DNA of 64,000 nt. Source: Alphaproteobacteria bacterium. GTDB lineage: Bacteria > Pseudomonadota > Alphaproteobacteria > UBA8317. Both the position numbers and the translations under genes were made by a program. This document shows positions 841 through 18,817 of this stretch, in pieces. Each line of letters opens with the position of its first letter. Position 1 is the first letter of the stretch. Location of the stretch: the NCBI GenBank assembly GCA_038131935.1, contig JAYPQH010000037.1, positions 32,001 to 96,000 on the forward strand. The letters are read 5' to 3'. The notes below the pieces were generated by a model. That model saw nothing but the letters and a program-made list of their open reading frames with translations. It searched no databases and was not told where the DNA came from.

Positions 841-999
841 CCTATTGACCCTATCATTACGAATGATGCCTAGCCTATCCACAACAGTGGCTTTCCCCGC
901 TATGGCGACGATGAAAACAACTCTAATAAGAACCTCCTGAGCTAAAATATTTTCTAGGGGATTGGGTCTTGCTCAAGTTCCCATCAAGAAGTTTCTAAC

Positions 1000-2292
1000 C
1001 AAGGATAATCCATGACTTCTCTTGCTTGTATCTTCCACCAGAGCAATGGTCTGGAAACCAAGACAATGTCCACGATACGGCATGTGCCAGCTTTCATGGA
1101 TCTCACCACAACCTCCCGCGTCCATAAATTATCTGTGGCAGTCATCACTTGGTTAACCATGCAAAAAGCGTACAACCGACTCTTACCCGCCACGGATTCT
1201 TTTTCAACTGCTGCCATCAATGTGCAAACACGCTGATGTTGGATTATCATTGGCTGTGCGAGCCACTGGGTCTCAGTGCTTGTGTTATTTGACCGTTTTC
1301 AAGGGCAAATACAGTGCTTGCGCACTTTGGGCTTCTAGCATTGGTCTTTGTTGGTCTGTAGTATTTTATCAATTTTTGATTTTTGTCTGACTTTGGGGGC
1401 GTTTGAGACAATTTCTAAGGTTTTTAATAATCTCTGACGAATGGCTGTCCAGCCCTCTCTCACAACTTTTATGGCCTGGTCTCTTTTGCCTATCGCCAAC
1501 AAACATTTGACCAATCCAGCTGCTGCTGGAATGATCTGAGACGTCATGGAGCCTGGGAAAATACCAAGCTTGGTGGAACTAAGGTCTCTTTATAGCCACG
1601 CGCAAGTTCTACTTTCAACATAGCCCAGTTTCCTATTACCAACGACTGGGTCAAAGTGACTTTCTTTGATCTGAGCGCCATGACTCCCATGGCCTTCCCA
1701 GTTTCTTTGTAGCAACTTCAAGTTGAGAAGAGGTTCAAGCAATTCCTTTGATCGGTCTCCGAGAGTAAATGCTTATGGGCCAGCCTGGCGCTGACTGATC
1801 ATCTGGCTCGACTGGTGCGCCCATCCAACAACCCTCTTTGAAAGCCAGCAAGCCTAGTTTCGATGACTGAGCCACATCTGCCAAAACTTCTGTGCTTGTT
1901 GATGATTGCCTGCTGACGCAGCACGCAAGAATAGGGGCGGTGAGCAGTGGGCGGTCTAATACCGCGTCCGCTTTGCGTAAAAGCAATGCGCCGATCGGTA
2001 AATGTCCATCTTCAAGTTCGATAAGCGCTTTTTCAATGAGTGCGAGTCCTTTTTGGTTTTTCTTGAGACCATTTATCTGTCCGCAAAAACGTGGAGCCAT
2101 GACGAGCTTGTGAACAGTGATAGGATGAATCCAAAATAGAATGCCCGTAATAATGAAAAAGCATGAGCATGCTGGCGCTACGCGTCTACAATGATAACCG
2201 CGTAGTCAATTGCAACATGTCCTGATTGCTCCAAGGAGCCAGACCAAGAGCTTTACGCAAGGCCAGCAAAAACAAAACAGAATCTTAGCATG
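1000..2292 (-). CDS. hemY: HemY-like TPR protein (heme biosynthesis associated), many apparent frameshifts; boundaries approximate
   Basis: Fragments: hydrophobic N-terminus MLRFCFVFAGL.., KNQKGLALIEKALIELEDG, IIPAAAGLVKCLLAIGKRDQAIKVVREGW, RVCTLMAAVE and a C-terminal GGCGEIHESW..HCLGFQTI Cys motif. Position matches the alphaproteobacterial hemC-hemD-COG4223-hemY operon. Confidence 0.7.
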
Positions 2293-3430
2293 ATATTAAT
2301 TCTTTCTGCCGCGTTGGAATGTATTGATGATTTCAAGGCTTCAACCATGAGGCGGATTCTCCGATGAAATGGGTTCCAAAACAGCTTGCGCTTGCTCGTT
2401 AAGGTGGATAACCCAATAAATAATCTTGCGAGAAGCCGCGTACAGAGCATTTCCATGTGAAACGATGAAGCATCAAGTCCTTCAGCGGCATCAATTCTTC
2501 CGGATGGTTGGTGGAGTGAACTGGGCCGAATGCATGATACTGACATCAAGCCCTTACTAGTCCCAGCACCTTTGCTTCATGGAGTATTAACGGCAATAAT
2601 TCTAAAATGCTGTAAATATGCAGAGGCAAAGGTTTCAAAGCCATCCTTGGCACGTTGTCACCGCAGCTGTAAGTTTAGGGCCTTGTCGAGATAGGAGTTC
2701 ATTTAGTTCTGCACTGCAAAAGGGTGTTCACCGAGAATGGCAACGCATATGGCAAGGTCAACACGATTGGCATCAGTTGTGCTGAGACGTGCCAACTGTG
2801 AATTCATCTCGTTTAAATCCATTGTTATAAGCGTCGAGATTGTATCTGAGCCTGATTGCGTGTCGTTTCCAAGTTTGTGGGCCAGTTGAGAAACATCCGT
2901 TTTCAATGACGTGCATATTGCGCCTGTAATTTTGAATGATCACGGATGTTACTTAAATTTGCTGGGTCTGCAATTTCCAGATTCGTCTACCCGCGCTTAA
3001 GCTGGTAACCTTTTGCTGAGAGTTCCTCTAAACGATTAGACAAGTCTAAATGGTTGTCGTAAGGAAGCTGATTTTTTGACGTGAAGTTTTAAGATCTGTC
3101 TTTCTAGGTCGCGAAATATTATTTTCCACTGATCCAATTTTTTTTTTCTATACTGATTTATCTGGGACTTTAGGGCGTTAATTTGTTCATCCACATCTTG
3201 TGATCCTAAAAACCTAATGGATGATTCCGTGGGTTCCAAACCAAAATGATGTATGAGTGAGAGGGCGTCAATAAGACTGACAGCACCAGATAAAAATATT
3301 CCGATTGCTCAATTGAAGAAAATGGCCAACTAGTAGGGGTTGTTTGGCGACATGGTGAAGAAGCATCCTCAATTGGATTTTGAAAACTACAAGGTTGTGC
3401 CTTCTTCGTTTGAACTTTCTCAATCCACAG
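2285..3430 (-). CDS. COG4223 / mitofilin (Mic60)-like inner-membrane coiled-coil protein, frameshifted; boundaries approximate
   Basis: Coiled-coil fragments (QDVDEQINALKSQINQ; LNEMNSQLARL), an LAI..A..GEHPF motif and a hydrophobic stretch near 3270-3310. It lies between hemD and hemY. Confidence 0.55.
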
Positions 3431-3479
3431 AGGGCCCCTTGTGGTGGTGGGTGATGAGAAGATGTGACGTTATGGAAAC

Positions 3480-4183
3480 TTGCCAGTCTTTTCAAGAAAG
3501 CTATCAACTATCTTGTAATGCGACAATTTCCGTGTTTTATTGATCAATGCTGATGCGGTTGATAGCTGAGGTGGTCTGCATCAGGGGTGATATGCAGGCA
3601 GTATGGATATTGTTTGTTTCTAGTTGATGCATGGGCTGAAAATAGCCTTGCAATATTTGCAGAAGAAGGATAACATTATCTGGCTGTCGCCAAAGCTTTC
3701 TTCCCAATCTGTTGGAATTTTTCTGATTGTTTTGGGCTCTATAACAAACGACCCTGCTGGTGTGCGGCAAATGCTTCAGATCTGAAAATCAAGGTGGAGC
3801 ATCTTGTCCAGACAGAAATAGTACTCTGATGATTTGTGTCTTTTTGTAATGATTGAAGGTTGTTCTGGTATTGAGCTCCTGTTATGGCCAATGCGACAGC
3901 CAAGATCCTTGGGAGTTGTTACAGTTCGTTCGTCGACCAACGACATGAAACACAGGCTCAGGAGGCAACTGTGCCAATGATCTCGCCTAAGCGAAACCGT
4001 AAGACATTTTTCAGAGGAAATAATGATCTCAGAAAATGGCCAACATGATATGTTTGCGTAACGCTTCTATGGCGCTACGATAGGTGTATGGTAGAAATGG
4101 TAATCATGACGCTGCGCAATCATACGCCAGCACTTCAGCACTTTCGTGCGGGCGTAGTGATATGACAGCGTTGAGTCATGGAA
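3480..4183 (-). CDS. hemD: Uroporphyrinogen-III synthase, frameshifted; boundaries approximate
   Basis: Fragments ..IT(R)PHESAEVLA, VVGRRT, LSGQD, SRVVCYRAQ, HTACISP. Directly downstream of hemC. Confidence 0.6.
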
Positions 4184-5078
4184 GTTCCAAAACTCATCCT
4201 ATATGACCAAGCAATTCTTTGCTAATTCCGTTCCCAACATTTCAGCATCTGATGCAGAGGCGCCACTTTAAAGAAAAACCTTCTTGCTGCCAACACAGCG
4301 ACAGCTCACCACGCAACAAAAATTTCGCCCTCGTAGAAGGTGGCGTTTCCAAATTGGGGTCTGACAAGAACCATCTAACTTTTCTTGAGAAAGCACGCCC
4401 AGCGCTGACACAAACGACAGTTGATGCTTCATCATGTAAGGGCGTTAGAAAGCCATCGATTTATCATCATCCGCGGCATTGATACTCAACAGCGCCTTGC
4501 GCTACAGCAGGAAGCTACTTCCATACGCTGACGTGTTGCCAATGTTCATGCCTCAATCTATTTAGGCCATGCGTAAGAAATGTCGCATCAGCGATGCCTT
4601 CTGAGTTTTTGAAGGCGGGTTTGTACATTACCTCGAAGCCAACATTTGGATGTCAGATTTTAGATGTCGTAATTGCGCAGCTCTTTCTAAACTGATGAGT
4701 GTGCCCATAACAGAGCCAAGTGGTAAGGGGCTTGAATAGACTCATAAGGTCCTAAAAGACTGACATCTTCGACGGCTCCACGCGCTAAGAGAAATCGTTA
4801 CAAGATCTGGTGTAAAATGCGGCAACATCTTCATCGAATGTACGGCAAACATCGATGTCACCCTATAGAGAGCCTCTTCTAACTCCTTGGGTGAAAAGGC
4901 CTTGCCACCAATTTCTAAAGAGGTTTGTCTTGGATCGGCTGCCGGTTGTGTGGAAGGTCTGAATGATAAACTTGTTCATCAGTCCAGCCATGAGCAAGGA
5001 GCACCCATTTTTCTACATCGTAAGCAGCCAAGGCAAGGGCGAACCTCTTGTCCTGATCCGCAATATGGTTGAGCTCAT
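4180..5078 (-). CDS. hemC: Hydroxymethylbilane synthase (porphobilinogen deaminase), frameshifted
   Basis: Reverse strand fragments MSSTILRIRTRGSPL.., IQDKPL.EIGGK..KELEEAL..DID.AVHSM, and LDGSCQTPI (cofactor-binding Cys). Confidence 0.85.
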
Positions 5079-5219
5079 TCAGTCTTACTCCTGTCAATTA
5101 TTCAGACACCTCCTTTGCAATGGATGTGACCAATCGAGTGTTTGATTATCACCAATTGTTTCATACTGACTAAAGCTGAAGTCCATTTGTAGCAAAACTT
5201 TGAGTTTGTAAGACGCTTT

Positions 5220-6240
5220 ATGTTGGTTTTGGGTATTGAAACAAGTTGTGATGAAACCGCTGTAGCCTTTGGTCGAGGGTAATCCACCTGGTCCTGCCGA
5301 ATTATCAACGAACAGCTTTATACACAGCTTATTGAACATCAGGATTTTCAGGGGTTGTCCCAGAGATCGCGGCGCTGGGTACATCTTGAACGGCTTGATG
5401 CCCTGACCTGAGACTTGTTTGAAAACAACCTCAGTAGATTGGGGTGATATAGACGCTATAGCCGCAACGGCAGGCCAGGGTCTTATCGGGGGGTATTGGT
5501 GGTCTCATGTATGCAAAGGCCTAGCGCAGGCGTGGGTCTACTATTCGGTTGCAAGTAATCATTTGAAGCCCATGGGTTTGACAGCGCGTCGGAGTCATGG
5601 CGGCGCTTGCCTTATTGGCTTTTTTGGTTGGTTTCTGCGGTCAGATCATACAAGCTCGTGATGTTGATGATTGTCCAAATAGGTGGAAAACTACTGACGA
5701 TGCCCTGGGGTGAGGCATCTGATAAAGCAAGATGATGGGGCTTTTGGGGATGCCAGGTGGCCCAAAAGCAGAAAATCGGCGTTAAACGGGGATCCAAAGG
5801 CCTTTGAACTGCCAAGGCCATTGCTAAAAACAGGACATGACTTTTCTTTCAGGTTTGAAAACGGGCTGTGTGCAGGCATTTGAGTCTGTAGTGAGATTGA
5901 AGCGAGCAGAGCATGGCAGATCTAGCCTGCGTCATTTCAAGATGCCCGGGTGATTGTCAGAGTGGTGCTAGAGCGGGCGCTTGAGGAGCATGGGAAAGCA
6001 TTCTGACGTTGGTCGTTGCTGAGGTGCTGCCTGTAATCACATTTGCGAACAAGATTGGAGCAATTGGTACAAGCACATGAAGTTTCTCTTATCTGTCCTC
6101 CCTGATGTCGCTTTGCTCTGATAATGCAGCCATGATAGCTTGGGCAGGAACCAGATGTTGTCACGCGGCCATCATGATGCGCCAGACGTACTGGCAAAGC
6201 CGTTTGGCCAGTTGTTATCTTCCTCGAAGTATACGTGATT
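5220..6240 (+). CDS. tsaD: tRNA N6-threonylcarbamoyltransferase TsaD, frameshifted; 3' end approximate
   Basis: ATG at 5220 gives MLVLGIETSCDETAVA. Later fragments DIDAIAATAGQGLIGG, NHL..H, GEA.DK and DNAAMIAWAG (6116-6149). Confidence 0.9.
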
Positions 6241-6283
6241 GATGCAACAATAGTGCCAGCTTGTTAGGGCTTGTGATCCAGCT

Positions 6284-7239
6284 ATGACAGAGAAGAATGC
6301 ATGTTGTAGGTGCTGGGGCTTCTGGGGTACAGCATTAGCTAATCACTTTGCCAAGTCTATGAAGACATCACTTCCAGGTGCAATAAAATACATGTTAGCT
6401 GAAATGGTCTAACGACAAAAGAGAGTCCGAGGTTGCCAGGTGTTACCCTCCATGAGCAATTGAAACTTGTCGATGCGTTTGTTGAGGCTGACATTATCTG
6501 TTTTGCATTACCATTCTGTCTTGCAAGAATTCCTCCAAACAGCACCTTGTCTATAGACCTTTTTGGTTGTGGCATCGAAAGGTATTACGGAAGATGGTTT
6601 GTTGGTCCCAGATGTTCTGAACAAAACGGGATTCTGGCCAATGGCTTTTACTATCAGGACCTAGTTTTGCTCGTGATTTGGCACATAGTCGTCAGCGGCT
6701 GTTACATTGGCTGGTCACGGTTTGCATCAACAGGGAGGCCTTGGCTCATTGTTTACTAATACGCAATTACGTGTTTATCCGATAGTGATATGCAGAGTTG
6801 CGTTGGGCGGTGCGGTGAAAATGTTATGGCCATGGCATGTGGTGTTGCGCGTGGGGGTGGTTTAGGTGAGTCAGCTGTTGCTGCGGTGGCGGCAATGGGG
6901 TTCGCTGAAATAAGAAGACTCTTTATGACGTCATTGGCGCGGGCCATCTACCATGATGGGGCTCTCAGCTTTGGCGATCTTTTTAACCGCTTCTTCCCCT
7001 TCCCCGTAAACACTCAGTTTGGGATGGCATTGGGTTCTGGTAAGACCGTTGACCAAGCCATGATATCTGTTTTTGGTATTGTTGAAGGGCGGGCGAGTAT
7101 TAACGGCGTCCTTGCCTTAGCAGAAAAATATGACTTGGATTTGCCTATTACTTCAGGTTTAAGAGATTTGTTGCTTGCGAAATGTTCTGTGCAAGAGCTG
7201 TTGGATAGCTTTCGTGCGCGGCCAATGACAAGGGAATAG
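6284..7239 (+). CDS. gpsA: NAD(P)H-dependent glycerol-3-phosphate dehydrogenase, frameshifted
   Basis: VVGAGA.GTALA Rossmann motif at ~6303, AVKNVMAMACG, GFAEIRRL, VEG, DLPIT..RARPMTRE*. Follows tsaD as is typical. Confidence 0.88.
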
Positions 7240-7343
7240 AGATGTACATAATGATGGTAGAGGGTTTCCCGATCATGTAAATGTACGTAAATTCCCCAAA
7301 AACAAGATGCCAAAAATGTAACAATGGATATGATAAGAGGAAA

Positions 7344-9564
7344 ATGAGCATGGAATCATCATCACAAAGTGATATTATTTACACCATCGTAGACGAAGCC
7401 CCCGAGCTTGCTAGTGCGTCTTTGCTGCCGATCATACGGAGCTTTGCGCAAGCTGCTGGGGTACGAGTAGGTACAAAGGATATATCTCTGGCAGGGCGTA
7501 TTTTGGCTGCATTTTCCGACCGGCTACCTGATGATCAGAAGCATTCAGATGACTTGGCTGAATTGGGTGCTTTGGTAAAAACCCCGCATGCTAATGTCAT
7601 TAAGTTGCCGAATATTTCTGCATCAGTTCCACAGTTGGTGGCTGCAGTTGAAGAGCTTCAGGCGCAAGGTTACGCGATTCCCGATTATCCCCACGAGCCG
7701 AGCAACGATGAGGAAAAAGAGATCAGGGCCATTTATGATGGTATCAAAGGATCAGCTGTAAACCCTGTCCTTCGAGAAGGTAATTCGGATCGGCGTGCCG
7801 CAAAAGCTGTGAAAAATTATGCGATGAGTAACCCTCATTCAATGGGTGTTTGGTCGAGAGATTCTAAAACACATGTTTCATCCATGACGGGGAATGATTT
7901 TTTCTCCAATGAAAAATCGGCCACCATTTCAGCGTCGCAAGCAGGATCTGCACATATTGAATTCATCTCGTCTGACGGCCAAACAGAGATCCTGAAAAAA
8001 GGGCTTAATGTTGGCAGAAGGAACAGTTGTTGATGCTACATTTATGTCGGTCAAAGCATTGCGTACATTTCTTGAAGAACAAATTGAAGATACGAGAGCA
8101 GGGGGGATCTTGTTTTCGCTGCATTTGAAGGCAACCATGATGAAGGTCTCTGATCCCATTATATTCGGTCATGCTGTAGAGGTATTTTTTGCGGAAGTGT
8201 TCAGCAAACATGGTGAGAAGTTGCGTGAGCTTGGGGTCAATCCAAATTCAGGCCTTGCGGATGTTTTAGCACGTGTGGCTGAGTATCAAGATATAAGTGC
8301 AGATTTTGCTGATACCTTATCTAAGCAGCCACCCATGTATATGGTAAATTCTGATAAGGGTATCACCAATTTGCATGTTCCTTCAGATGTTATCATTGAT
8401 GCATCTATGCCGGCTGTTATTCGTGCTGGCGGAAAAGGGTGGGGACCAGATGGTCAAGAGGGCGATACCAAATGTGTTATCCCTGATAATAGTTATGCAC
8501 CTGTCTATGACGAAGCGATTGCATATTTTAAGCAGACCGGTGCCTTAGATCCTACGAGCTGTGGGACCGTTGGCAATGTAGGTTTGATGGCTCAGAAAGC
8601 TGAGGAATATGGCTCACATCCGACAACATTTGAAATGAAAGCCGATGGGGAAGTGCGTTATGTCCTTGCCAACGGAGAGGTTCTACATAGTCATAAAGTT
8701 GAAAAAGGTGATATCTGGAGAGCTTGTTCTACCAACAAAGCACCGATCTTAGACTGGGTACAATTGGCAATCGACCGTAAACGGGCAACCGGAAGTCAGG
8801 CTATTTTTTGGTTGGATAAAAACCGTGCCCATGACGCACAACTGATACCGTTGGTAGAGGAGATTCTTGAAGCAGAAGGGTTGTCTGATGCATTTCTCAT
8901 CTTACCCCCGCGTGAGGCCACAAGACTAACATTGGAAACCATTCGTGAAGGCAAAGATAGCATTGCCATTACAGGAAATGTATTGCGTGATTACTTAACA
9001 GATTTGTTCCCTATTCTAGAGTTGGGTACATCCGCAAAAATGTTATCGATTGTGAAGCTCATGAATGGCGGTGGTTTGTTTGAAACAGGTGCAGGTGGTT
9101 CTGCACCCAAGCATGTTCAGCAACTTGTTGAAGAAAACCATCTTCGTTGGGATTCTTTGGGCGAATTCTGTGCCCTTGGCGAGTCCTTTAAGTTTCTGGC
9201 AAACATCAAAAACAATAAAAAAGCTGCCATATTGGGTGCAGCCATTGATGTTGCGACCCAGGGCATTTTAGATGAAAATCATTCGCCGCAGCGTCGTGTT
9301 GGCCAACCTGATAACCGGACGAGTCATTTTTATTTTGCAAAATACTGGGCGCAGGCACTAGCTGAGCAAAATGATGATGAAGAGCTTTCTGCACATTTTA
9401 CCCCCATCGCTCAGGCATTGGTCGACAATGAGGAGCAAATTCTCCAGGAGCTTCTTGGTGCGCAAGGGGTGGCTGTTGATTTGGGTGGATATTATCATAC
9501 TTCGCCTGATAAAACCGCTGAAGTGATGCGTCCAAGCGCGTTGTTCAATCAAATTATTTCTTAA
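7344..9564 (+). CDS. icd: Monomeric NADP-dependent isocitrate dehydrogenase (one frameshift near the A6 run at 7995-8000)
   Basis: [97 protein letters not shown]. ORFs 7281-8033 and 8008-9564 join to about 740 aa. Confidence 0.95.
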
Positions 9565-9632
9565 CGTGCTCGTGGATATGAAACGCATAGACTAAGGCTA
9601 TGCGTTTCATCAAAAATGAGGGTGAACATTCA

Positions 9633-10079
9633 ATGGATAGATTTTGTTATTGGGTATTTAAATCTGAACCTGGAACTTGGTCATGGGAGCAGCAATGCGA
9701 TCGCGGGGATGAAGGTGAGGGTTGGGATGGTGTGCGTAACCATCAAGCTTCTAACAATATGAAGGCGATGCATGTTGGGGATCTAGGATTTTTTTATCAT
9801 TCCGTTAATGAAAAAAGAATTGTTGGTGTCGTTGATGTCATTGAAACCTACCATCCTGATCCAACAGACGAGACAGGAAAATGGGGCATGGTCCGGTTAC
9901 GGGCCTTAAAAACAGTTCCAGAGCCTGTAAGTTTAGCTGATATCAAAGCAAACCCTGCTCTAGATGGGCTGGCACTCATCAAACAATCGAGGTTATCGGT
10001 TGTCCCTGTAGCAGACCATCATTGGCAGGAGATCTGTCGCATGGCCAAGTTAAATCCTGTGCCCAAAATTGACCGATAA
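9633..10079 (+). CDS. EVE domain (PUA-like) protein
   Basis: YWVFKSEP..WDGVRNHQA.NNMKAM.VGD..FFYHS..QSRLSV motifs. Confidence 0.93.
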   Translation: MDRFCYWVFKSEPGTWSWEQQCDRGDEGEGWDGVRNHQASNNMKAMHVGDLGFFYHSVNEKRIVGVVDVIETYHPDPTDETGKWGMVRLRALKTVPEPVSLADIKANPALDGLALIKQSRLSVVPVADHHWQEICRMAKLNPVPKIDR

Positions 10080-10485
10080 GATGGACCTCGATCCTGAAGA
10101 TGCTCTGCCCAAAAGCGGCATGGTTTTGGCACATATTGAAGATTTAGCTCAGCAGCGTACGATGAGCTTGGAATTCCGTGTTGATGAACGTCTAGGTCGT
10201 CTGATTTTGGTATATCATGATGGTGAAGTCACTTGTTTCATCAACAAATGTCCTCATGCACGGGCACCCCTAGATTGGATTGGAGGGAGATGTCTTGATC
10301 CTACGGGGCGCTACCTTCAATGTGCAGTTCATGGCGCGTTATTTCGTATGTCAGATGGCTATTGCGTTAAGGGACCGTGTTATGGGGACAATCTTGAAAG
10401 CTTTCCCGTGATTGTTGAAGATAGTGTTGTGCTGGCTGCGAGAGGTGATGGTTCAGACCGCACGTATAAGCCGTTGGATGAATAG
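10069..10485 (+). CDS. Rieske [2Fe-2S] ferredoxin-type protein
   Basis: CPH...CAVHGALF..DG.C..GPC ligand motifs. Confidence 0.9.
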   Translation: MTDKMDLDPEDALPKSGMVLAHIEDLAQQRTMSLEFRVDERLGRLILVYHDGEVTCFINKCPHARAPLDWIGGRCLDPTGRYLQCAVHGALFRMSDGYCVKGPCYGDNLESFPVIVEDSVVLAARGDGSDRTYKPLDE

Positions 10486-10590
10486 CCGACAGGCGCATGG
10501 TTTGGTAGGTAGCAAGGAATGAACAGATAATCGCCCACACAGAAACCAACAAAATGAAGAGATAGATGGGCTTGGAGGCAGGAGAAAAAA

Positions 10591-12528
10591 ATGAGTGACC
10601 TTTATGAAGTGCAACCTTCTTGGCGTGAAAAAGCTTTGCTGAATAATGAAGACTATCTCCAGATGTATCAACAATCCATTGATGATCCAGACGCATTCTG
10701 GGGAGAACAAGGTAAGCGCATTGATTGGATAACGCCCTACACAAAAGTGAAAAACACAAACTTTAACGGTCAAAACGTCTCAATCAAATGGTTTGAGGAT
10801 GGTGTTCTGAATGTTTGTGCCAATTGTGTTGATAGACATTTGCCAGAAAAAGCAAATCAAACAGCCCTTATCTTTGAAGGTGATGATCCTGAGGTGCATG
10901 AACATATCACCTATGCGCAGCTTCATAAACATGTGTGCCAGTTGGCTAATGCCTATAAACAGCTAGGTGTACAAAAGGGTGATAGGGTTACCATTTACAT
11001 GCCGATGATACCCCAGGCCGTTTACGCTATGTTGGCTTGTGCCCGTATTGGTGCGGTGCATTCGGTTGTTTTTGGCGGCTTTTCACCAGAAGCCCTGGCG
11101 GATAGGGTAAGAGATTGTGGTTCGAAGCTTGTTGTTACCGCAGACGAAGGATTGCGGGGCGGACGTAAAATACCACTTAAAGCCAACACTGATGAAGCAT
11201 TAAAAAAATGTGATCAAACCGTTAAAACTATTGTGGTACAGCGCACAGGTAATGATGTAGGTATGCAGGAGGCTAGGGACCATTGGTATCATGATATTAC
11301 CTCATCTCAGCCGGAGACATGCCCAGCAGAGCCAATGAATGCGGAAGATCCGCTTTTTATTCTCTATACTTCTGGGTCTACAGGAAAACCGAAGGGTGTC
11401 TTGCATACTTCTGGTGGGTATCTTGTGTACGCGTCCATGACGCACAAATATGTCTTTGATTATCAAGATGGAGATATTTACTGGTGTACTGCTGACGTCG
11501 GTTGGGTGACAGGCCATTCCTATATTGTGTATGGTCCACTTGCAAATGGCGCCACAAGTTTGGTTTTTGAAGGCGTGCCAAACTATCCCACAGCGTCACG
11601 TTTCTGGGATGTATGGGAAAAAGCATAAGGTTACAATATTTTACATGGCGCCAACGGCTATTCGCGCGTTGATGGGCAGTGCAGAGATGACTATGTAAAA
11701 CAAGCTGATCTCTCAAGCCTACGGGTTTTGGGCTCCGTGGGCGAACCGATCAATCCCGAAGCATGGCTTTGGTACTACAACCAAATTGGTAAGCAGAGCT
11801 GCCCAATTGTCGATACATGGTGGCAAACTGAGACAGGAGGGATTTTAATCACACCTCTTCCCGGCGCCACGGATTTAAAGCCAGGTTCAGCCACACGGCC
11901 GTTTTTTGGTGTGTTGCCGCAAATCGTTGATGCAGATGGTCAAGTATTGGAAGGCGCAGCGGAAGGAAATTTATGTATTGCAGACTCATGGCCTGGCCAG
12001 ATGCGAACAGTTTTTGGAGATCATGAGCGTTTTGTGCAAACCTATTTTAGCACCTATCAGGGCAAATATTTTACAGGTGATGGCTGTCGGCGAGATGAAG
12101 ATGGGTATTACTGGATTACAGGTAGGGTTGATGATGTGATCAATGTGTCAGGTCATCGAATGGGTACCGCGGAAGTGGAGTCTGCGCTGGTTGCTCATGA
12201 AAAAGTTTCCGAGGCTGCCGTGGTTGGTTACCCCCATGATATCAAAGGTCAAGGCATCTATGCCTACGTGACATTGATGGTGGGTGAGGAACCTTCGGAA
12301 GAGCTGCGCAAAGAGTTGGTCAAATGGGTTCGTCAGGAAATTGGTCCTATTGCATCACCAGATTTGATACAGTTTGCACCTGGGCTTCCAAAAACGAGAT
12401 CAGGAAAAATTATGCGTCGCATTTTGCGCAAGATCGCTGAGAATAGTTATGATAGTCTCGGAGATACATCTACCCTAGCAGAGCCTGCTGTGGTGGATGA
12501 TTTGATTGAAGGACGCATGAATAAGTAA
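10591..12528 (+). CDS. acs: Acetyl-CoA synthetase (frameshifts at ~11620-11700)
   Basis: [60 protein letters not shown]. Two ORFs join. Confidence 0.96.
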
Positions 12529-12625
12529 CATTGTTCCGCCTTTATCCTATCTCAAGCGCTCTGATCTACTGGTATTCAGGAGAGGCCGCTAAATATTCTC
12601 TCATCTATTACCATGAGGGAAGACG

Positions 12626-12986
12626 ATGCGTAGGTATTTTTTCTTAGGTACCATTATGGTGCCTGGTTATGTTTGGGCGGCCGGGATCGGTGCGGTTGCA
12701 CAACGGATAAGGGATGAGTTGACCGGGCATTGCCATGCTGCTTGAGGGTTATCGTTTCTTTCTAGGCCTGATCATGGCAATGATTGCAATCGGACGGCTT
12801 TTGGCGCATGGCCGTGATCCTATTCGTTTTTCTATGGGTGATGTTATTTGGCGTGCTGTGGCTGCGGCCATGTTCATTGCGCTACCTGAAGTTTTAGGGG
12901 TTGGGGTCAGCACACTTTTTGGTGAGAACGCGACCATTCTAGATAGCACAGGCGATGGTCTGGTGGGAGCATTAAGACTTGGTTGA
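12626..12986 (+). CDS. Pilin-like small membrane protein resembling Dot/Icm IcmD (DotP)/TraQ-TraR and VirB2 types; one frameshift at ~12725
   Basis: GAGGGA SD at 12615 and ATG at 12626 give MRRYFFLGTIMVPGYVWA/AGIGAVAQRIRDELTG. Removing one G at 12725-12727 joins it to ORF 12735-12986: two hydrophobic helices separated by AHGRDP, ending IALPEVLGVGVSTLFG. Confidence 0.6.
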
Positions 12987-14427
12987 TGCTCAGGAATGTT
13001 TTCTCATTCGTCGTGCTCATCCAGTTTACAATATGTTGGCAGATTATATGATCATCACGCCGGATAAGGCAAAAACCCAACAAAATATTTACTTCGAGAG
13101 TTTTCGAAGTTCATGTCAACATAGGCATCCTGTTTGGCCTAAGCTGCAAAATTGTTGGGATTTATTGGCAGTAGAAAATCCCTCTTTGGATGTGGATGAC
13201 ATCTTGGCGCAACTTATTCCCCAGAGGGATGTTGTTTGGGTAATCTGGTTTCAATCAATGCTTTTTGAGGAACCTTTATGGCGTTCAGCACTTGAACGTG
13301 GGTTGGCAACGCTCGATAGGAATATAGCTGTACGAAGGAAGTGGATTGCTAAGCATAGCGATGAAAACCTGTCCGTTTTAAGTTTAAGACTTGTGGTTTT
13401 CGCCCAAGATCCTGTCCCTGATTTGTCTCTTTCTGGTTGTGTCATGAGATCTACCTCATTCCAGCAAGAAACAACCTATCTCCTCACCTATTCGCGGATC
13501 GCAAACCAACTAAAACCTAGAGAAACGCCTAGACCGCACGATAAGACGCAACCCATTTTGGCTGATCGCGCGCACCGGGCCTATTTGGCACCAAATTGGG
13601 GTCAAACAAACAAATGGGGCCTTTTGTTATCTGGTGGCCCCGCTAGTGGAAAAACCTCTTTGGCAAAAACATTTTTGCGACATGCTGCACGTCAAAATTA
13701 TCCTATACTTCATGTAGCATTGGAGGATGAATGGGGCGAGCATCTAACATGGGTAGATGATAAGCCATTCAAAAAAAGTTGGGCGCCTCAACCACCAGAC
13801 CCCATTTGCATCACCGCTGGTCCCCTCATGCAAACTGTCTTTGGCCAGTTTTTGGCACATTTGGATGGTCAAGATCATCATCGTGAAGACCGAGAGGATA
13901 TGTGGAAAGATTTTCAAGAGCGTATTCACCAACCTAAAATAAAAGATTTTGTGCAATCTCTTCTGGTAAGCCAGATAAAAACCAACAGCCCTGATCCCTC
14001 TGGCTATCAATTGATGATGTTTGCCGATCAATTTACCGATCAAGAGCCAAGTAAGTTTGTGAGGGGGCAACATATCATGGTGGGCAAATATCTTCGTCTT
14101 CATGCTAAGGATCCCTGGTTGGCAGATATCATGATTAGTTTGGAGGTTGCATCATTTATTGACGCGTGCATGGATGGTATTGCTGTTGTATGTCTGGACG
14201 ATGCGCATGTATATTCCGATGCGCCAATGATGAATTTTCTGATGGAATCTCTGCTGCGCAAAAGAGGAAGAGGAAAAGTCCACCTCATCGCTTCTTATCA
14301 GGATCAGAGCGATATCCCAAGTTACTGGCTCCAGCTGGCTACCCATCATTACAAAGCTGAGCTCGATCATTATAGCTTTGTGAACACAAAAGAAGACAAA
14401 TCTGTTGCGGTTCACATTCTCTCATGA
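12979..14427 (+). CDS. Divergent P-loop ATPase, IcmB/TraU (VirB4-like) type, about half the usual length
   Basis: Walker A GGPASGKT (13633-13656), Walker B VVCLDDAH (14185-14208), then R..RGKVHLIASYQDQSDI (HerA/VirB4-type RK..hhhxxQ region). Overlaps the pilin-like gene by 8 nt. Confidence 0.6.
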   Translation: MVDAQECFLIRRAHPVYNMLADYMIITPDKAKTQQNIYFESFRSSCQHRHPVWPKLQNCWDLLAVENPSLDVDDILAQLIPQRDVVWVIWFQSMLFEEPLWRSALERGLATLDRNIAVRRKWIAKHSDENLSVLSLRLVVFAQDPVPDLSLSGCVMRSTSFQQETTYLLTYSRIANQLKPRETPRPHDKTQPILADRAHRAYLAPNWGQTNKWGLLLSGGPASGKTSLAKTFLRHAARQNYPILHVALEDEWGEHLTWVDDKPFKKSWAPQPPDPICITAGPLMQTVFGQFLAHLDGQDHHREDREDMWKDFQERIHQPKIKDFVQSLLVSQIKTNSPDPSGYQLMMFADQFTDQEPSKFVRGQHIMVGKYLRLHAKDPWLADIMISLEVASFIDACMDGIAVVCLDDAHVYSDAPMMNFLMESLLRKRGRGKVHLIASYQDQSDIPSYWLQLATHHYKAELDHYSFVNTKEDKSVAVHILS

Positions 14428-14576: not shown

Positions 14577-15668
14577 ATGTTTTCCGCAAGAATTGTTGTT
14601 TTGTGTTTGTTGTTCGTGCAAGCAGCTTGGGCGCAAGAGAGACCATCTATGGTTGGTGTAGATGACGTTCGCCTGAGCCCTATCACACGGGATGTAAGCT
14701 TAATTGGTAAGGTTGTTGCCAACCAATCTGGACCGATTTCCAGTAACATTTCTGGGCGTGTTCAAACAGTTCTGGTCCGCGCAGGTGATGTTGTTAAAAT
14801 TGATGACCCAATGGTGATCATTGACCCAGAAGGTTTACAATTGAATGTGGAGCTTGCCCAAGGGCGTTTGCGCGAAGCCGTAGCGTCACTTCAGGTTGCT
14901 GAAGCTGAGCTACGTCAAGCAGAACGAGGTCTATCTCGTGCCAAGCAGCTACGCAATTCGGCAAGCTTTTCATCTGCAAGGCTCGAGGATGCGGAAGATG
15001 CTATCGTACGGGCACGGGCTTTGCAAACGCGTGCAGCTGCAGCAAAAAACCAGGCAGAGACGCAGCTATCACTTGCAGAAAAAGCCTTGCGTGAAGGGGT
15101 AATACGGGCCCCATTCAACGGGGTGGTCTTTGGCGTCATGGCCATACCGGGGGCCTATGTCACAACAGGTAGTCCTGTGGTGTCTATGGTAAATGTGGGA
15201 TCACTTGAGTTGGAAATTCCTCTACCCTCTCAATATCTGAGCCAAGTTACGATTGGATCTCAAGTTGTGCTTGGGGCAATGGGGGAAACACGTGTTTTGT
15301 CTGTCTCACGGATCATACCACGAGAAGACCCCCGAACACGGGCCCGACCTATTCGAATTGAATTGCCATTATCTGACGATTTTGTTGAAGGAAAATCTTT
15401 AGAGGTCTCCGTACGCTTGCGTGGGAAAGAGCGCCAATTAACAATGTCAAAAGACGCTCTGATTGATGGCCCTCGAGGGAAAATGGTATTCAAGATGGTC
15501 GATGGCGCAGCCATTGCGCAACCCGTTGTATTGGGAGAAAGCGTGGGGAACCGCTTCATTGTGAAGTCGGGTTTGCAAGATGGTGACAAGGTTGTGATCC
15601 GCGGGAATGAGCGCCTCCGACCAGGTCAAGCCATTAAAGCAATGCCAAAAGGGAGATCTCAGTCGTGA
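14577..15668 (+). CDS. RND efflux periplasmic adaptor (membrane fusion protein)
   Basis: Signal peptide, ISGRVQTVLVRAGDVV lipoyl-like motif, coiled-coil hairpin, IRAPFNGVV, SGLQDGDKVVIRG. Confidence 0.93.
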   Translation: MFSARIVVLCLLFVQAAWAQERPSMVGVDDVRLSPITRDVSLIGKVVANQSGPISSNISGRVQTVLVRAGDVVKIDDPMVIIDPEGLQLNVELAQGRLREAVASLQVAEAELRQAERGLSRAKQLRNSASFSSARLEDAEDAIVRARALQTRAAAAKNQAETQLSLAEKALREGVIRAPFNGVVFGVMAIPGAYVTTGSPVVSMVNVGSLELEIPLPSQYLSQVTIGSQVVLGAMGETRVLSVSRIIPREDPRTRARPIRIELPLSDDFVEGKSLEVSVRLRGKERQLTMSKDALIDGPRGKMVFKMVDGAAIAQPVVLGESVGNRFIVKSGLQDGDKVVIRGNERLRPGQAIKAMPKGRSQS

Positions 15669-18600
15669 TCTTAATTCGTCAGGCTATTGCGCGTCCAGCC
15701 GCCGTTTGTGCAGGCGTCTTTTTGATTGTTTTGTTTGGTTATGTGGGTTTGCAAAAAATCCCCATTCAATTGGTTCCAGATGTCGATCGTCCTGTTATTG
15801 TTGTAGAAACACAATGGCCTGGTGCGGCCCCTGCTGAAGTTGAAAGAGAGATTATCAACAAACAAGAAGAGCAACTCAAAGGTGTTAAAGGTGTCGAAAG
15901 TATGGAGGCCAGGGCACGCACTGGCCGCGCACAAATCACCTTGGAGTTTGGGGTTGGTCAAGATATTGATCAGGCGCTTATTCAGGTCGCCAACAGACTT
16001 GATAGGGTAAGTGGCTATCCTGATGAAGCTGATGAGCCAACATTAGAAACCTCCGGTTCTGAAGATAACCCCATAGCCTGGTTTGTGTTGAAGCGAAAAC
16101 CAGGAAATACCCAGCCCATGGTCACGTTTTCAGCATTGGTTGATGACGTGATTACAGAGGCCATAGAACGGGTTCCCGGTGTGAGCCGGACCAATGTATA
16201 TGGCAGTTCCGAAATCCAAATGCAGGTTCGCATTCGCCCAGAAAATTTGGCAATGTATCGACTAACCATAGATGATGTTGTTCGGTCGTTACGACAATCT
16301 AATGCATCCATTTCTGCTGGTGATCTTGACGAAGGTAAACGCCGCTATGTGATACGTGTGGAGTCAGACCTTGCAACTCCAGAGCTTGTTGGCGCTGTTG
16401 TGGTTCGGACGGATCCTGCCATTGGGAGGGTTTATGTCCGCGATATTGCTGAGATTGCAATGGCGTATCCAGACCCTGACTCCATTCGTCGTCATTTGGG
16501 AGAGGATGCAATTCCTTTCAACGCTGTTCGGGAAACAGGTGCAAATGTAATCTCGACAATGGCCAGAATTCGAGAAGTGGTTGATGATCTCAACAACGGT
16601 ATTTTAAAAGATAACGATCTTCATGTGCGAATGGTCTATGATGAAACCATCTATATTGAAGACGCCATAGATCTTGTTCAGGGAAATATTCTATTAGGTG
16701 CTGCATTTGCAGCCCTGATATTAATGCTGTTTTTAAGGTCCTGGCGCGCAACAACGGTGATATCCATCGCTATACCTGTATCTGTGATAGGAACATTTGT
16801 TGCGATGTCTCTTACGGGCAGAACCGTTAATGTCATATCCTTGGCGGGTATTGCCTTCGCGGTTGGCATGGTCGTTGATGCGGCGATTGTTGTGTTGGAA
16901 AATATTTATAGATTAAGGGAACGTGGGATGCCTTTGCACCAGGCGGCGTTTCATGGAGCCAATCAAGTATGGGGCGCAGTGCTGGTGTCAGCATTAACCA
17001 CGGTAATGGTCTTTATTCCTATCATGACAACAGACCTTGAGGTGGGGCAACTTTTTCGCGATATCGCCGTGGCCATATCGGTTTCTGTTCTTTTGTCTTT
17101 GTTGATTTCTATAACATTGATTCCTGCTTTATTTAGTTGGCTTTTTGCGGGTGGAACGGGCATCTCCACCAGAAGGCTGCCATTTATAGATGATATTGCT
17201 TCACTGTTCAGTAGAACCGTTTTGGGATTAGCGAGGCGCACAACTGGCTCTATGGTCCTAGGCCTAACTTTGGTTGCGGTCATGACGATGGGTGCTGTTT
17301 TTGTTTCATGGAAATTTCTCCCCAAGTTGGAATATCTACCAGAGGGAAATAACAATTTTGTTTTTGGGGTTATTTTGCCCCCACCAGGTTACAATTTGAA
17401 TACCTCTCAATCCATTGCTTCACGTGTTGAATCCCAGGTCGAAGATTTATGGGCAAGCAAAACCGGCCCAGAAGATAGCCCTGAAGGTCTACCAAAGTTT
17501 GACAACTTCTTTTTCGTCGCGAGGCAAGAGTTGAGCTTTATTGGTGGATCGTCCCTCAAACCAGAGCGGGCAGAAGAACTTATTCCCATTATGCGGAAAC
17601 CTATATTTTCTGAACCAGGAACTTTTGGTTTCATAAACCAACGGTCGATTTTTGGTCGTGGTATAGGTGGTGGTCGATCGATAGATGTTGATGTCATGGG
17701 TGATGACCTCAATGTTATTCTTCCAGTGGCGCAACAGGCTGCAGGCTTGATCTCACAGATATTACCCAGGGAAAAAGGCCATCAATTTCGGCCTCGACCA
17801 GGTTTAGAGCTGGGAGCACCAGAGGTTCGTGTAACACCCGATTATGTTCGATTAGGTGACAATGGCTTGACTGCTTCAGGTTTAGGTTTGGCCATAGATG
17901 CTGCGAACGATGGTGTCCGTGTTGCAGAAATCAATGTGGCAGGAAAACAAACAGATTTGGTTGTAAAAGGTTTTTCGGAGAGTTTTACGGCGACGCAACA
18001 GGTGGCAGAGATTCCCGTGGTGACGGGAAATGGTGAAATTGTGACGGCGGGAAGTTTAGCCGATGTTGAGGTTACAGCCGGACCAGTTGAAATTCGTCAT
18101 AGAGAGAGGTTCCGTACGATTACCCTGCAAGTACGGCCCTCAAAGTCCATGCCTCTAGAACAAGCCATGGATTTGTTGGAAACGGAAGTGCTGGCAAAAT
18201 TAAACGAACAAGGATTGCCAGAGGGGGTGCGTGTTGAACTCTCCGGAACAGCCGACAAGCTCACGGAGGCATCCCAAGCCCTTACGGGAGATTTGATCTT
18301 GGCTATTGTGATCGTCTATTTGGTCATGGTTGTCCTGTTTGAAAGCTTCATGTTCCCCTTAATCATTTTATTCACAGTCCCTATCGCGATGGCTGGTGGC
18401 GTGGGCGCTTTGGGTATTTTGAATATGTTCACGCTACAATCCTTAGATATGCTTACGCTTCTTGGGTTTATTATTTTGACAGGTATTGTGGTGAACAATG
18501 CCATCCTATTGGTGGATCAATCACTCATTGGGATCAGGGAAGAGGGACTGTCTATTGTTGAAGCTATTTTGGAGGCAGTACGTAACCGAATGCGGCCTAT

Positions 18601-18817
18601 TTTTATGTCGACCATTACCTCTTTGGTTGGGATGTTGCCACTGGTTTTGTTTCCAGGTGCTGGGTCAGAGCTATATCGCGGCTTGGGGACCGTTGTTGTT
18701 GGTGGTTTGGCTTTATCATCGCTTATTACCCTTCTCGTTATGCCGCCTCTGATTGCATTGATCGCAAAGCTGCGTGCTGAACAAACCAGGCAAGATCTTG
18801 TATCAAGCGAAGCTTAA
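15665..18817 (+). CDS. RND efflux transporter permease (AcrB/AcrD/AcrF family)
   Basis: 1050 aa; PGAAPAEVEREI, GMVVDAAIVVLENI, GIVVNNAILLVD, RMRPIFMST. GTGA overlap with the adaptor gene. Confidence 0.96.
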   Translation: MILIRQAIARPAAVCAGVFLIVLFGYVGLQKIPIQLVPDVDRPVIVVETQWPGAAPAEVEREIINKQEEQLKGVKGVESMEARARTGRAQITLEFGVGQDIDQALIQVANRLDRVSGYPDEADEPTLETSGSEDNPIAWFVLKRKPGNTQPMVTFSALVDDVITEAIERVPGVSRTNVYGSSEIQMQVRIRPENLAMYRLTIDDVVRSLRQSNASISAGDLDEGKRRYVIRVESDLATPELVGAVVVRTDPAIGRVYVRDIAEIAMAYPDPDSIRRHLGEDAIPFNAVRETGANVISTMARIREVVDDLNNGILKDNDLHVRMVYDETIYIEDAIDLVQGNILLGAAFAALILMLFLRSWRATTVISIAIPVSVIGTFVAMSLTGRTVNVISLAGIAFAVGMVVDAAIVVLENIYRLRERGMPLHQAAFHGANQVWGAVLVSALTTVMVFIPIMTTDLEVGQLFRDIAVAISVSVLLSLLISITLIPALFSWLFAGGTGISTRRLPFIDDIASLFSRTVLGLARRTTGSMVLGLTLVAVMTMGAVFVSWKFLPKLEYLPEGNNNFVFGVILPPPGYNLNTSQSIASRVESQVEDLWASKTGPEDSPEGLPKFDNFFFVARQELSFIGGSSLKPERAEELIPIMRKPIFSEPGTFGFINQRSIFGRGIGGGRSIDVDVMGDDLNVILPVAQQAAGLISQILPREKGHQFRPRPGLELGAPEVRVTPDYVRLGDNGLTASGLGLAIDAANDGVRVAEINVAGKQTDLVVKGFSESFTATQQVAEIPVVTGNGEIVTAGSLADVEVTAGPVEIRHRERFRTITLQVRPSKSMPLEQAMDLLETEVLAKLNEQGLPEGVRVELSGTADKLTEASQALTGDLILAIVIVYLVMVVLFESFMFPLIILFTVPIAMAGGVGALGILNMFTLQSLDMLTLLGFIILTGIVVNNAILLVDQSLIGIREEGLSIVEAILEAVRNRMRPIFMSTITSLVGMLPLVLFPGAGSELYRGLGTVVVGGLALSSLITLLVMPPLIALIAKLRAEQTRQDLVSSEA

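Follow-up and report, generated by a model that had tools for sequence, protein, structure and literature searches.

Two overlapping genes lie between acs and a resistance-nodulation-division (RND) efflux operon in the stretch of DNA analyzed here, a window of 64,000 nucleotides (G000:C37:32001-96000) from an alphaproteobacterial metagenome-assembled genome (MAG), G000, which totals 2.48 Mb in 67 contigs and is 89.9% complete. Gene 1 (12626..12986, forward strand) encodes a small inner-membrane protein, 119 aa long in the population, and gene 2 (12979..14427, forward strand) encodes a P-loop ATPase of 482 aa from a TTG start. The start of gene 2 overlaps the end of gene 1, including its stop codon, by eight bases (12979..12986, forward strand), an arrangement suggestive of translational coupling. 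The initial annotation, made from the letters alone, had described two overlapping genes at this place, the first with a signal peptide and two helices and the second a P-loop ATPase, and open reading frames (ORFs), Pfam and hydropathy bear this out. It had also read the two as a pilin and an IcmB-like ATPase from a reduced or scattered Dot/Icm secretion system. We consider it fairly probable that the two genes were left over from a type IVB (Dot/Icm, IncI-like, MPF-I) secretion/conjugation cluster that was cut down and domesticated.

As assembled in the window, gene 1 is broken: frame A starts with ATG at 12626, encodes MRRYFFLGTIMVPGYVWAAG.. and stops at 12740, and frame B (12735-12986) holds both hydrophobic helices. 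The population was checked with contigs from four runs of four studies, three made from DNA libraries and the fourth from an RNA library. Every run departs from the window at the same three places (one base fewer at 12725, an additional G after 12743 and one base fewer at 12759), and with these three indels applied 12626-12986 becomes a single open frame of 119 aa. The acs gene differs from the window by indels in all four runs as well, at 11618 and at 11677-11683, and is likewise unbroken there. Three window genes in total are split by single-base indels, namely the isocitrate dehydrogenase gene (IDH; 7281-9564, pieces of 250 and 518 aa), acs (345 and 266 aa) and gene 1, and the indels in acs and gene 1 adjoin base runs such as AAAAA, GGG and TTT. 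Because acs and IDH are broken in the same manner as gene 1, the window appears to carry assembly indel errors. The gene 1 frameshift is private to this assembly and not biological, and apparent pseudogenes in the window deserve distrust.

The protein begins with a signal-peptide-like N-terminus (12626..12685, forward strand, end approximate), recognized from the translation, the protein of the sister species, hydropathy and the alignment: a basic start, a hydrophobic core and V-W-A or A-W-A ahead of the mature part, where a candidate cleavage site can be read. The sister species is represented by G001, an 84% complete MAG and the only other species of the genus examined. Hydropathy gives a signal-like segment (residues 1-18 in the sister species) and two hydrophobic segments at about 30-62 and 72-98. 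Gene 1 thus has the size and topology of the IcmD/DotP-TraR family, whose members have about 120-135 aa with a signal segment and a hairpin. No match to the protein was found in Pfam, NCBIfam or PHROGs, and the TrbC/VirB2 model PF04956 matched neither G000 at E<=1 nor the intact sister protein at E<=10. The label of pilin is not supported, since PF04956 does not match and since IcmD/DotP is described in PMC8896642 as a small integral inner-membrane protein of uncharacterized function.

The origin of gene 1 emerges from its homologues. A tblastn search of plasmids with the intact sister-species protein gave 14 records, eight of which were inspected. Five records, from Aminobacter, Brucella/Ochrobactrum, Shinella and Sinorhizobium, match with E values between 6e-11 and 2e-7, sharing 36-44% identity across 76-79% of the query; another three plasmid records, from Martelella, match at E 0.01-0.02. 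At seven of the eight inspected loci the homologue (123-127 aa) lies inside a type IVB cluster. One strand of these clusters carries IcmT/TraK, DotG/IcmE, DotH/IcmK, IcmL/DotI and a thioredoxin-fold gene; the other carries genes weakly similar to IcmG/TraP and to TraQ, then the small gene, and directly behind it an ORF of 1006-1011 aa that abuts or overlaps it (annotated as two pieces in one record). TraX/IcmV-like and DotA/TraY genes stand farther along wherever the flank reached them. The homologue of the eighth record, from Bosea (E 0.6), adjoins only a DotI/IcmL/TraM gene. The pSR4 ORF encodes 1008 aa and, with 30% identity to R64 TraU across 996 residues (E 3e-112), is a TraU homologue. 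The order in R64 (NC_005014) is traM(IcmL)-N-O-P-Q-R-S-T-U-V-W-X-Y, and because this order matches and the pSR4 ORF is a TraU homologue, the gene 1 homologue stands at the traR position. In Legionella the order is icmL, K, E, G, C (585 nt), D (399 nt), J (627 nt) and B (3030 nt), according to a table in PMC6761968, which agrees with the order icmC-icmD-icmJ-icmB given in the initial annotation; judged by gene order, the gene 1 homologues occupy the icmD position.

The gene 1 family profile aligns with R64 TraR at an hhalign probability of 63% (E 6.8e-5, 48 columns over the hairpin). R64 TraR (at 1e-4) and several gene 1 family members match the NCBIfam TraQ model equally weakly, and NCBIfam seems to have no model for IcmD/TraR. 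Over the class, the profile finds matches in 35 of 401 genomes, often in two to five copies; this tally counts G000, G001 and one unpublished genome, which enters into no other result given here. For 20 other genomes the context of the best match was fetched and scanned with profiles of plasmid and R64 genes. IcmL, IcmK and IcmE occur together in 14 of these 20 contexts, and a TraU/IcmB ORF (E<1e-100) follows 0.7-1 kb past the last small gene in 13; three contexts hold only TraQ-like or small genes, and the short ATPase of the gene 2 family is found in none of the 20. On the evidence of homology and gene order, the assignment of gene 1 to the IcmD/DotP (IncI1 TraR) position family of T4BSS (type IVB secretion system) components is supported, and the placement proposed in the initial annotation holds: homologues directly precede a TraU/IcmB homologue in Dot/Icm-like clusters.

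Some features of these clusters are of interest in themselves. In other alphaproteobacterial T4BSS clusters, gene 1 family members form tandem arrays of two to four genes (e.g., L129:9498-10772, L130:9925-11285, L134:9557-11779 and L140:10288-13251), and family repeats are also fused in frame with a TraQ/IcmC-like module, one such frame having 988 aa and three repeats. The gene 1 family and TraQ-like profiles cross-match, so IcmC and IcmD seem to be paralogues. Some clusters have four tandem IcmL/DotI-like genes (L135:15233-18152, L144:3156-6090).

Gene 2 consists of an N-terminal domain of ~205 aa without detectable relatives and a C-terminal ATPase core, and it has no transmembrane segment by hydropathy. 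The core contains a Walker A motif, GGPASGKT (residues 219-226; 13633..13656, forward strand), in which G219, P221, S223, G224 and K225 are invariant in all five family members, and a Walker B motif, VVCLDDAH (residues 403-410; 14185..14208, forward strand), which has the form hhhhDEAH in the sister clade and aligns with the Walker B of the VirB4, HerA and TraU/IcmB profiles. These are followed by a block, aligned by hhalign with VirB4 and with the TraU/IcmB consensus, of the pattern R-x-x-G-R-x-K-V-x-h-h-x-S-x-Q-x-x-x-D...L-A-T (residues 427-455; 14257..14343, forward strand), an arginine/glutamine block of the type typical of VirB4/HerA/IcmB ATPases. The translation reads GQTNKWGLLLSGGPASGKT at residues 208-226 and RKRGRGKVHLIASYQDQSDIPSYWLQLAT at residues 427-455. 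The two IcmB motifs named in the initial annotation align with the TraU/IcmB consensus derived here ('..qt.W.DL....PGaGKS' and 'RegRKwGVQivLaSQLLdDF......lAt') with identical spacing, although the first of them, before Walker A, is missing in the sister clade. Gene 2 is a member of the FtsK/HerA/VirB4 superfamily with its catalytic motifs intact. It shares with IcmB the Walker A motif, the Walker B motif and the R-x-G-R-K...S-Q...D...A-T block, as well as the position directly after an IcmD/TraR-family gene, with an 8-nt overlap. It does not share the length: IcmB has about 1000 aa, and full-length homology to it was not found in the 482 aa of gene 2.

Relatives of gene 2 are few. A word-indexed search with the protein gave one match, 98% identical, and the same search with the family profile added nothing beyond the genus; phmmer against 1.84 billion representatives gave two matches, the sister clade and a fragment, and none outside the genus. 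Over the 401 genomes of the class the family profile found only G000 and G001, besides three motif-level matches with E about 1e-4. A pattern scan of a species-representative genome collection returned one gene 2 locus, that of G001, and tblastn against phages returned nothing. Within these searches, the gene 2 family was found only in this genus.

At greater distance, the window protein matches generic P-loop families only. The sister-clade ATPase matches AAA_10 at 2.3e-5 (24.1 bits, cut-off 27.5) and a TraC-F-type model at 2.2e-5, with DUF87, P-loop_TraG, FtsK, CedD, VirB4_CagE and TcpF all far under their cut-offs. Its best single hidden Markov model (HMM) match is PADLOC mad8 (5.8e-11), followed by phrog_2666 (2.7e-9), with weak HerA matches alongside, and one sister-clade cluster carries a precomputed PF12846 assignment. 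By ESM features, all ten top clusters for gene 2 are DUF87/AAA_10/TrwB/FtsK; the N-terminal domain is nearest to TraC_F_IV and CagE_TrbE_VirB clusters (0.92, 161 shared features), which we treat as a lead only. Among plasmids, the tblastn match that extends over the whole core of the ATPase (28% identity, E 2e-3) is a 'TraC family protein' from an F-type transfer region.

Using alignments built from genomes of the class, hhalign matched the gene 2 family to 29 VirB4 sequences at 97.2% (score 93) over 215 contiguous columns, from Walker A to past Walker B. With 19 HerA sequences the match falls into two blocks, 90% over 53 columns and 56% over 66 columns; with 20 TraU/IcmB sequences it consists of colinear segments at 70% (query 65-245) and 67% (query 382-463); with 24 coupling proteins it reaches 8-13%. 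Summed scores are 57 + 43.5 for HerA, 93 for VirB4 and 49 + 48 for TraU/IcmB. Gene 2 does not have the make-up of a classical VirB4, which combines PF03135 with a C-terminal ATPase in about 800 aa, as PF03135 matches neither G000 nor G001. As for HerA, its model PF01935 (DUF87) does not match the window protein and reaches 14.5 bits (E 0.039) in the sister species, under its cut-off of 23.2, and no nuclease or effector partner gene stands beside gene 2.

The descent of gene 2 from IcmB, which we infer, is the least secure link in the type IVB origin, and several results weigh against it. BLASTP of gene 2 against the TraU homologue matches the Walker blocks only, and the TraU/IcmB HMM scores the five gene 2 family members at E 0.18-42, whereas the VirB4 HMM scores three sister-clade ATPases at about 1e-7. 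In a tree built from the Walker blocks (72 rows by 141 columns; HerA_L049 dropped for its odd composition, coupling proteins left out), the family stands beside IcmB with a support of only 64, and the approximately unbiased (AU) test retains forced groupings with VirB4 (p-AU 0.62) and HerA (p-AU 0.69). The N-terminal 205 residues gave nothing in hhalign against VirB4, HerA, type IV coupling proteins or TraU/IcmB. AlphaFold2 models are poor: the ATPase alone reaches a pLDDT of 35.9, and with the 5-sequence alignment a pLDDT of 45.5 and a pTM of 0.45. Foldseek ranks TdpA/HerA first among PDB structures, then TrwK/VirB4 and TrwB, with TM scores of 0.15-0.28; because the models are of poor confidence this ranking carries little weight and shows general HerA/VirB4/TrwB consistency only. 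Thus, the sequence, profile, tree and fold tests do not separate an IcmB, VirB4 or HerA ancestry. The name IcmB, as given in the initial annotation, goes too far for a protein of half the length that matches TraU/IcmB profiles only at the Walker blocks (67-70% by hhalign) and resembles classical VirB4 (97%) and HerA no less closely.

These results raise the alternative that only gene 1 derives from a T4BSS and that the ATPase is an unrelated member of the HerA/FtsK/VirB4 group (e.g., HerA-like or MADS-Mad8-like), using the hairpin as its membrane partner or sensor. On the one hand, mad8 is the best single HMM match of the sister-clade ATPase, weak HerA matches accompany it, the summed hhalign scores to HerA equal those to VirB4 and TraU/IcmB, TdpA and HerA top the Foldseek list and the HerA grouping has the p-AU value given above. 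On the other hand, little confidence attaches to the fold model, 53 + 66 columns align with HerA compared with 215 contiguous ones for VirB4, no nuclease, Sir2 or other defense partner adjoins gene 2, and its position and its start/stop overlap after an IcmD-family gene mirror the layout of plasmid T4BSS clusters. The mad8 profile is itself a generic one for the ATPase fold, because the MADS profiles, according to the methods of 10.1101/2023.03.30.534895, were made from HHpred alignments to PDB homologues; matches of this type may mark the generic fold rather than a MADS system. We consider this alternative unlikely, although it is the strongest competitor of a common type IVB origin for both genes.

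The pair is conserved beyond the window. An 8.8-kb contig of G001 carries, in this order, EVE, Rieske, acs, an intact small gene of 117 aa, an ATPase of 499 aa, a membrane fusion protein (MFP) and an RND pump, so the pair keeps its place next to acs in a relative, a point on which the initial annotation had sought an answer. The small gene and the ATPase gene overlap there by the four bases TTGA. The small proteins are 57% identical between the species (68 of 120 aligned columns for the population protein), and the ATPases only ~30%; across clades that far apart, Walker A, Walker B and the subsequent R...H...Q...D..P..W block are invariant. The stretch is present in runs of 13 studies, mostly marine. 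No indels or stops in the ATPase were found in the two contigs that span gene 2 or in partial contigs. Among the 19 population substitutions listed for gene 2, 11 are synonymous and 8 non-synonymous (pN/pS about 0.20); among those listed for acs, 12 are synonymous and 2 non-synonymous (pN/pS about 0.05). A 5.7-kb contig from the RNA library spans acs and gene 1 and stops 90 nt into the ATPase (window 10500-13070), and cover of gene 2 by contigs of this library is patchy. The pattern may reflect read-through from acs and lower expression of the ATPase; such contigs cannot show a transcript or its level, and they give only a hint that the pair is used.

A conserved overlap, motifs intact across ~70% divergence, an excess of synonymous changes and the recurrence of the stretch in many marine samples argue that the pair is in use and not decaying, and the population variation indicates purifying selection on it. 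That the pair is instead a decaying pseudogene remnant without function is very improbable. Such decay could be read from the frameshift of gene 1 in the window assembly, from an ATPase that is half as long as IcmB, fast-evolving and ~30% identical within one genus, and from a pN/pS above that of acs. However, none of the four other assemblies has the frameshifts, and acs shows errors of the same sort; in each species both reading frames are uninterrupted and keep the overlap and the catalytic motifs; and the synonymous excess of 11 to 8 is found with about 3.7 times more non-synonymous than synonymous sites.

Parts of a T4BSS are found at a second locus. In G000 it is spread over two small contigs, C67 (1-1090) and C62 (1-2539), with an overlap of 146 nt (98.6% identical) between them; they are colinear with contig C25 of G001 (L152:1-6203). 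The order is an extracytoplasmic function (ECF)-like sigma factor, IcmL/DotI, a protein of 116-147 aa, a truncated TrbC/DotL-type coupling ATPase and a 558-aa membrane protein. The IcmL/DotI proteins match PF11393 at 1.4e-13 to 1.7e-13, above the cut-off, and NF038072 at 1.9e-15. The coupling ATPase matches NF041447 (TrbC_conju) at 9.2e-53 and is 25% identical to R64 TrbC over 461 residues (E 8e-35); relative to TrbC it is without about 120 N-terminal and about 195 C-terminal residues and has no transmembrane segment, and its frame is broken in G000. The 558-aa protein is a multi-pass membrane protein of no family, without BLASTP similarity to R64 TrbA. Thus, both species possess an IcmL/DotI and a coupling protein of the DotL/IcmO/TrbC type at this locus.

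A scan of the whole of G000 with T4BSS profiles gave two IcmL/DotI matches, both on tiny contigs. None of the profiles for IcmK, IcmE, DotA, IcmT, TraU, TraQ, TraW and TraX matched in G000, and the same profiles worked on 13-14 of the 20 control contexts. PF03135 (VirB4), PF02534 (VirD4-type) and TIGR04346 (DotA) were not found in G000 or G001, nor were PF12293 (DotH), PF16816 (DotD) and PF16932 (DotC/TraI), in searches that had no positive control. DotB (TIGR02524) gave only sub-threshold matches, in a Tad-like locus. That locus (G000:C22, about 6000-13900) has sub-threshold DotB frames of 450 and 264 aa and a weak secretin-like match, and looks like a Tad/Flp-type pilus unrelated to the pair. 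A full T4BSS, with outer-membrane core, DotA/TraY, DotB/TraJ, IcmT and full-length IcmB, was not found in these 89.9% and 84% complete MAGs. The search for dot/icm genes elsewhere that the initial annotation had proposed yielded the IcmL/DotI and coupling ATPase locus, and not DotA, DotB, DotC/D, IcmK or IcmE; its suggestion of predation or host contact met with nothing that bears on it, and the outer-membrane core, DotA and DotB went undetected.

A complete canonical type IVB system might lie elsewhere, on a plasmid, on an island or in the unassembled 10-16%, which would make additional, diverged paralogues of the pair and the second locus. Neither MAG is complete, binning often misses mobile elements, and the second locus sits in G000 contigs of 1.1 and 2.5 kb, as expected for poorly assembling variable regions. 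Other Alphaproteobacteria also split their T4BSS over loci, and orphan TraQ-like/small-gene loci occur in L128, L136 and L139. Against this stand the profiles, which miss G000 for all eight components from IcmK to TraX and find 13-14 of 20 controls, the empty results for PF12293, TIGR04346, PF16816, PF16932 and PF03135 in both genomes with DotB sub-threshold only, and the lack of a relaxase (PF03432) in G000. Moreover, the two ATPases that were kept have been shortened and have diverged strongly, as would not be expected of parts of a working canonical machine. We regard a complete system elsewhere as distinctly improbable.

Returning to the type IVB origin of the pair, further points weigh on the opposite side. 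Gene 1 is not preceded in the window by a TraQ/IcmC-like gene, acs standing there instead, and no TraQ-like match exists in G000; the position between an IcmC/TraQ-like gene and IcmB/TraU inside a T4BSS cluster is thus not reproduced. Gene 1 is likened to Legionella IcmD by position and size only. The pN/pS of gene 2, at 0.2, is four times that of acs, and nine further differences fall outside the list. The absence of the outer-membrane core rests on the two MAGs, which are incomplete as noted above, and the DotD, DotC and DotH searches lacked a positive control. Joint action of the pair and the second locus is a proposal only.

The surroundings of the pair are housekeeping genes. Pfam identifies monomeric IDH, EVE, Rieske and acs (10591-11628 and 11728-12528, split) upstream, and an HlyD-type MFP (14577-15668), an AcrB-type RND pump (15665-18817) and an SNase-like gene downstream. 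The GC content of the pair (0.44-0.47) is that of its surroundings. No tyrosine integrase lies on the whole 116-kb contig of the window (none of the five matches in the genome falls on C37), PF03432 has no match anywhere in G000, and the T4BSS profiles built for this analysis have no other match within the window; for integrases, relaxases and the T4BSS genes profiled, the statement that they are missing here stands. Rfam has no match within the window, and counts from a promoter and terminator scan were not above those of shuffled sequence. Positions 1-7280 of the window contain seven ORFs of at least 90 aa, the longest of 149 aa, with a GC content of 0.37-0.48 and no Rfam match; this part is either rich in indel errors or genuinely non-coding.

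How the pair compares with known systems depends on which gene is considered. As in the Dot/Icm systems of Legionella and Coxiella, a small (~130 aa) membrane-protein gene lies upstream of a VirB4-type ATPase gene, and the clusters that hold gene 1 homologues are ordered IcmL-IcmK-IcmE-...-TraQ/IcmC-like-small gene-(gap)-IcmB. Unlike in those systems, the pair is without icmC, icmJ and a flanking system, and its ATPase has 482 aa compared with ~1009 and matches at the level of motifs only. In IncI1 R64 (traP-traQ-traR-traS-traT-traU), gene 1 corresponds in position to TraR (134 aa), and the place of gene 2 to the full-length TraU; however, traS and traT intervene between traR and traU, and the conjugation system of R64 is complete, including a relaxase, DotA/TraY and an outer-membrane core, which the window is without. 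The nearest relatives of gene 1 (36-44% identity) are on Hyphomicrobiales plasmids (Aminobacter pSR4, Shinella, Brucella/Ochrobactrum, Sinorhizobium and Martelella), and the abutting or overlapping small-gene/ATPase junction recurs at seven of the eight loci, but there the ATPase is a ~1008-aa TraU homologue and the remainder of the system is present. In type IVA systems, too, a small two-helix membrane protein precedes VirB4, and the gene 2 core aligns best in one piece with VirB4 (97% over 215 columns); yet PF03135 and PF04956 do not match, the relatives of gene 1 are in type IVB clusters, and VirB3, unlike gene 1, is not known to have a cleavable-looking signal peptide. HerA-type systems (HerA-NurA, Sir2-HerA, TdpAB and MADS Mad7/Mad8) share the superfamily, the Walker B and arginine block, the mad8 match (5.8e-11) and the top Foldseek ranks, whereas the pair is without their nuclease or effector partner, aligns with them in short blocks and has a T4BSS membrane protein as its partner.

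Taken together, the pair and the second locus are a strongly reduced form of a known type of system. The earlier reading of a chromosomally domesticated, scattered and divergent piece of Dot/Icm fits both the synteny of the pair in the sister species and the presence of the second locus in both species; as a description of a reduced, dispersed T4BSS derivative it was largely right, save for 'pilin' and 'IcmB'. The following history would account for these genes. An ancestor of the genus would have carried a type IVB cluster like those on alphaproteobacterial plasmids and chromosomes, most of which was then lost; inner-membrane and cytoplasmic parts would have been retained, trimmed and scattered, the hairpin with a half-sized ATPase at one place and IcmL/DotI with a trimmed coupling ATPase at another. 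Gene 1 is predicted to be exported by a Sec-type route and to form a helical hairpin in the inner membrane, N-out/C-out in the periplasm, with its short basic loop (..HGRDPxR..) facing the cytoplasm. Gene 2, putatively coupled to it in translation, would be a soluble ATPase of the RecA type, akin to VirB4, IcmB and HerA, that lost about half of the IcmB length and evolved very fast, keeping the Walker A, Walker B and arginine/glutamine blocks.

At the inner membrane, the ATPase may form a ring docked directly or indirectly on the hairpin protein and cooperate with the products of the second locus, namely IcmL/DotI, the coupling ATPase, the 147-aa protein and the multi-pass protein, the ECF-like sigma factor being encoded adjacently. 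The joint product would be a translocation or assembly motor of the inner membrane only, and not an envelope-spanning injection machine; because there is no outer-membrane channel, such a device would act at the inner membrane alone. It is conceivable, though rather doubtful, that a free-living marine genus has in this way turned a conjugative or Dot/Icm machine into a minimal inner-membrane-only device assembled from the hairpin, an ATPase derived from IcmB at half its size, IcmL/DotI, the shortened coupling ATPase and a novel multi-pass protein, possibly under the control of the ECF-type sigma factor. DNA or protein transfer across the inner membrane alone, or a role in envelope or vesicle biology, are possibilities for its task.

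Type IVB systems require IcmD/DotP, IcmC/DotE and the corresponding IncI proteins, the functions of which were still called uncharacterized in 2022 (PMC8896642). Among the literature matches listed, none describes, by title or opening of the abstract, a reduced T4BSS in free-living Alphaproteobacteria. The genus thus offers a natural reduction experiment, which points to the parts that make a self-sufficient inner-membrane module, and the retention of the pair suggests a direct partnership between hairpin protein and ATPase. If the proposed device is real, it would do something other than contact-dependent injection, and it would represent an exaptation of conjugation/secretion hardware in an abundant free-living marine bacterium.

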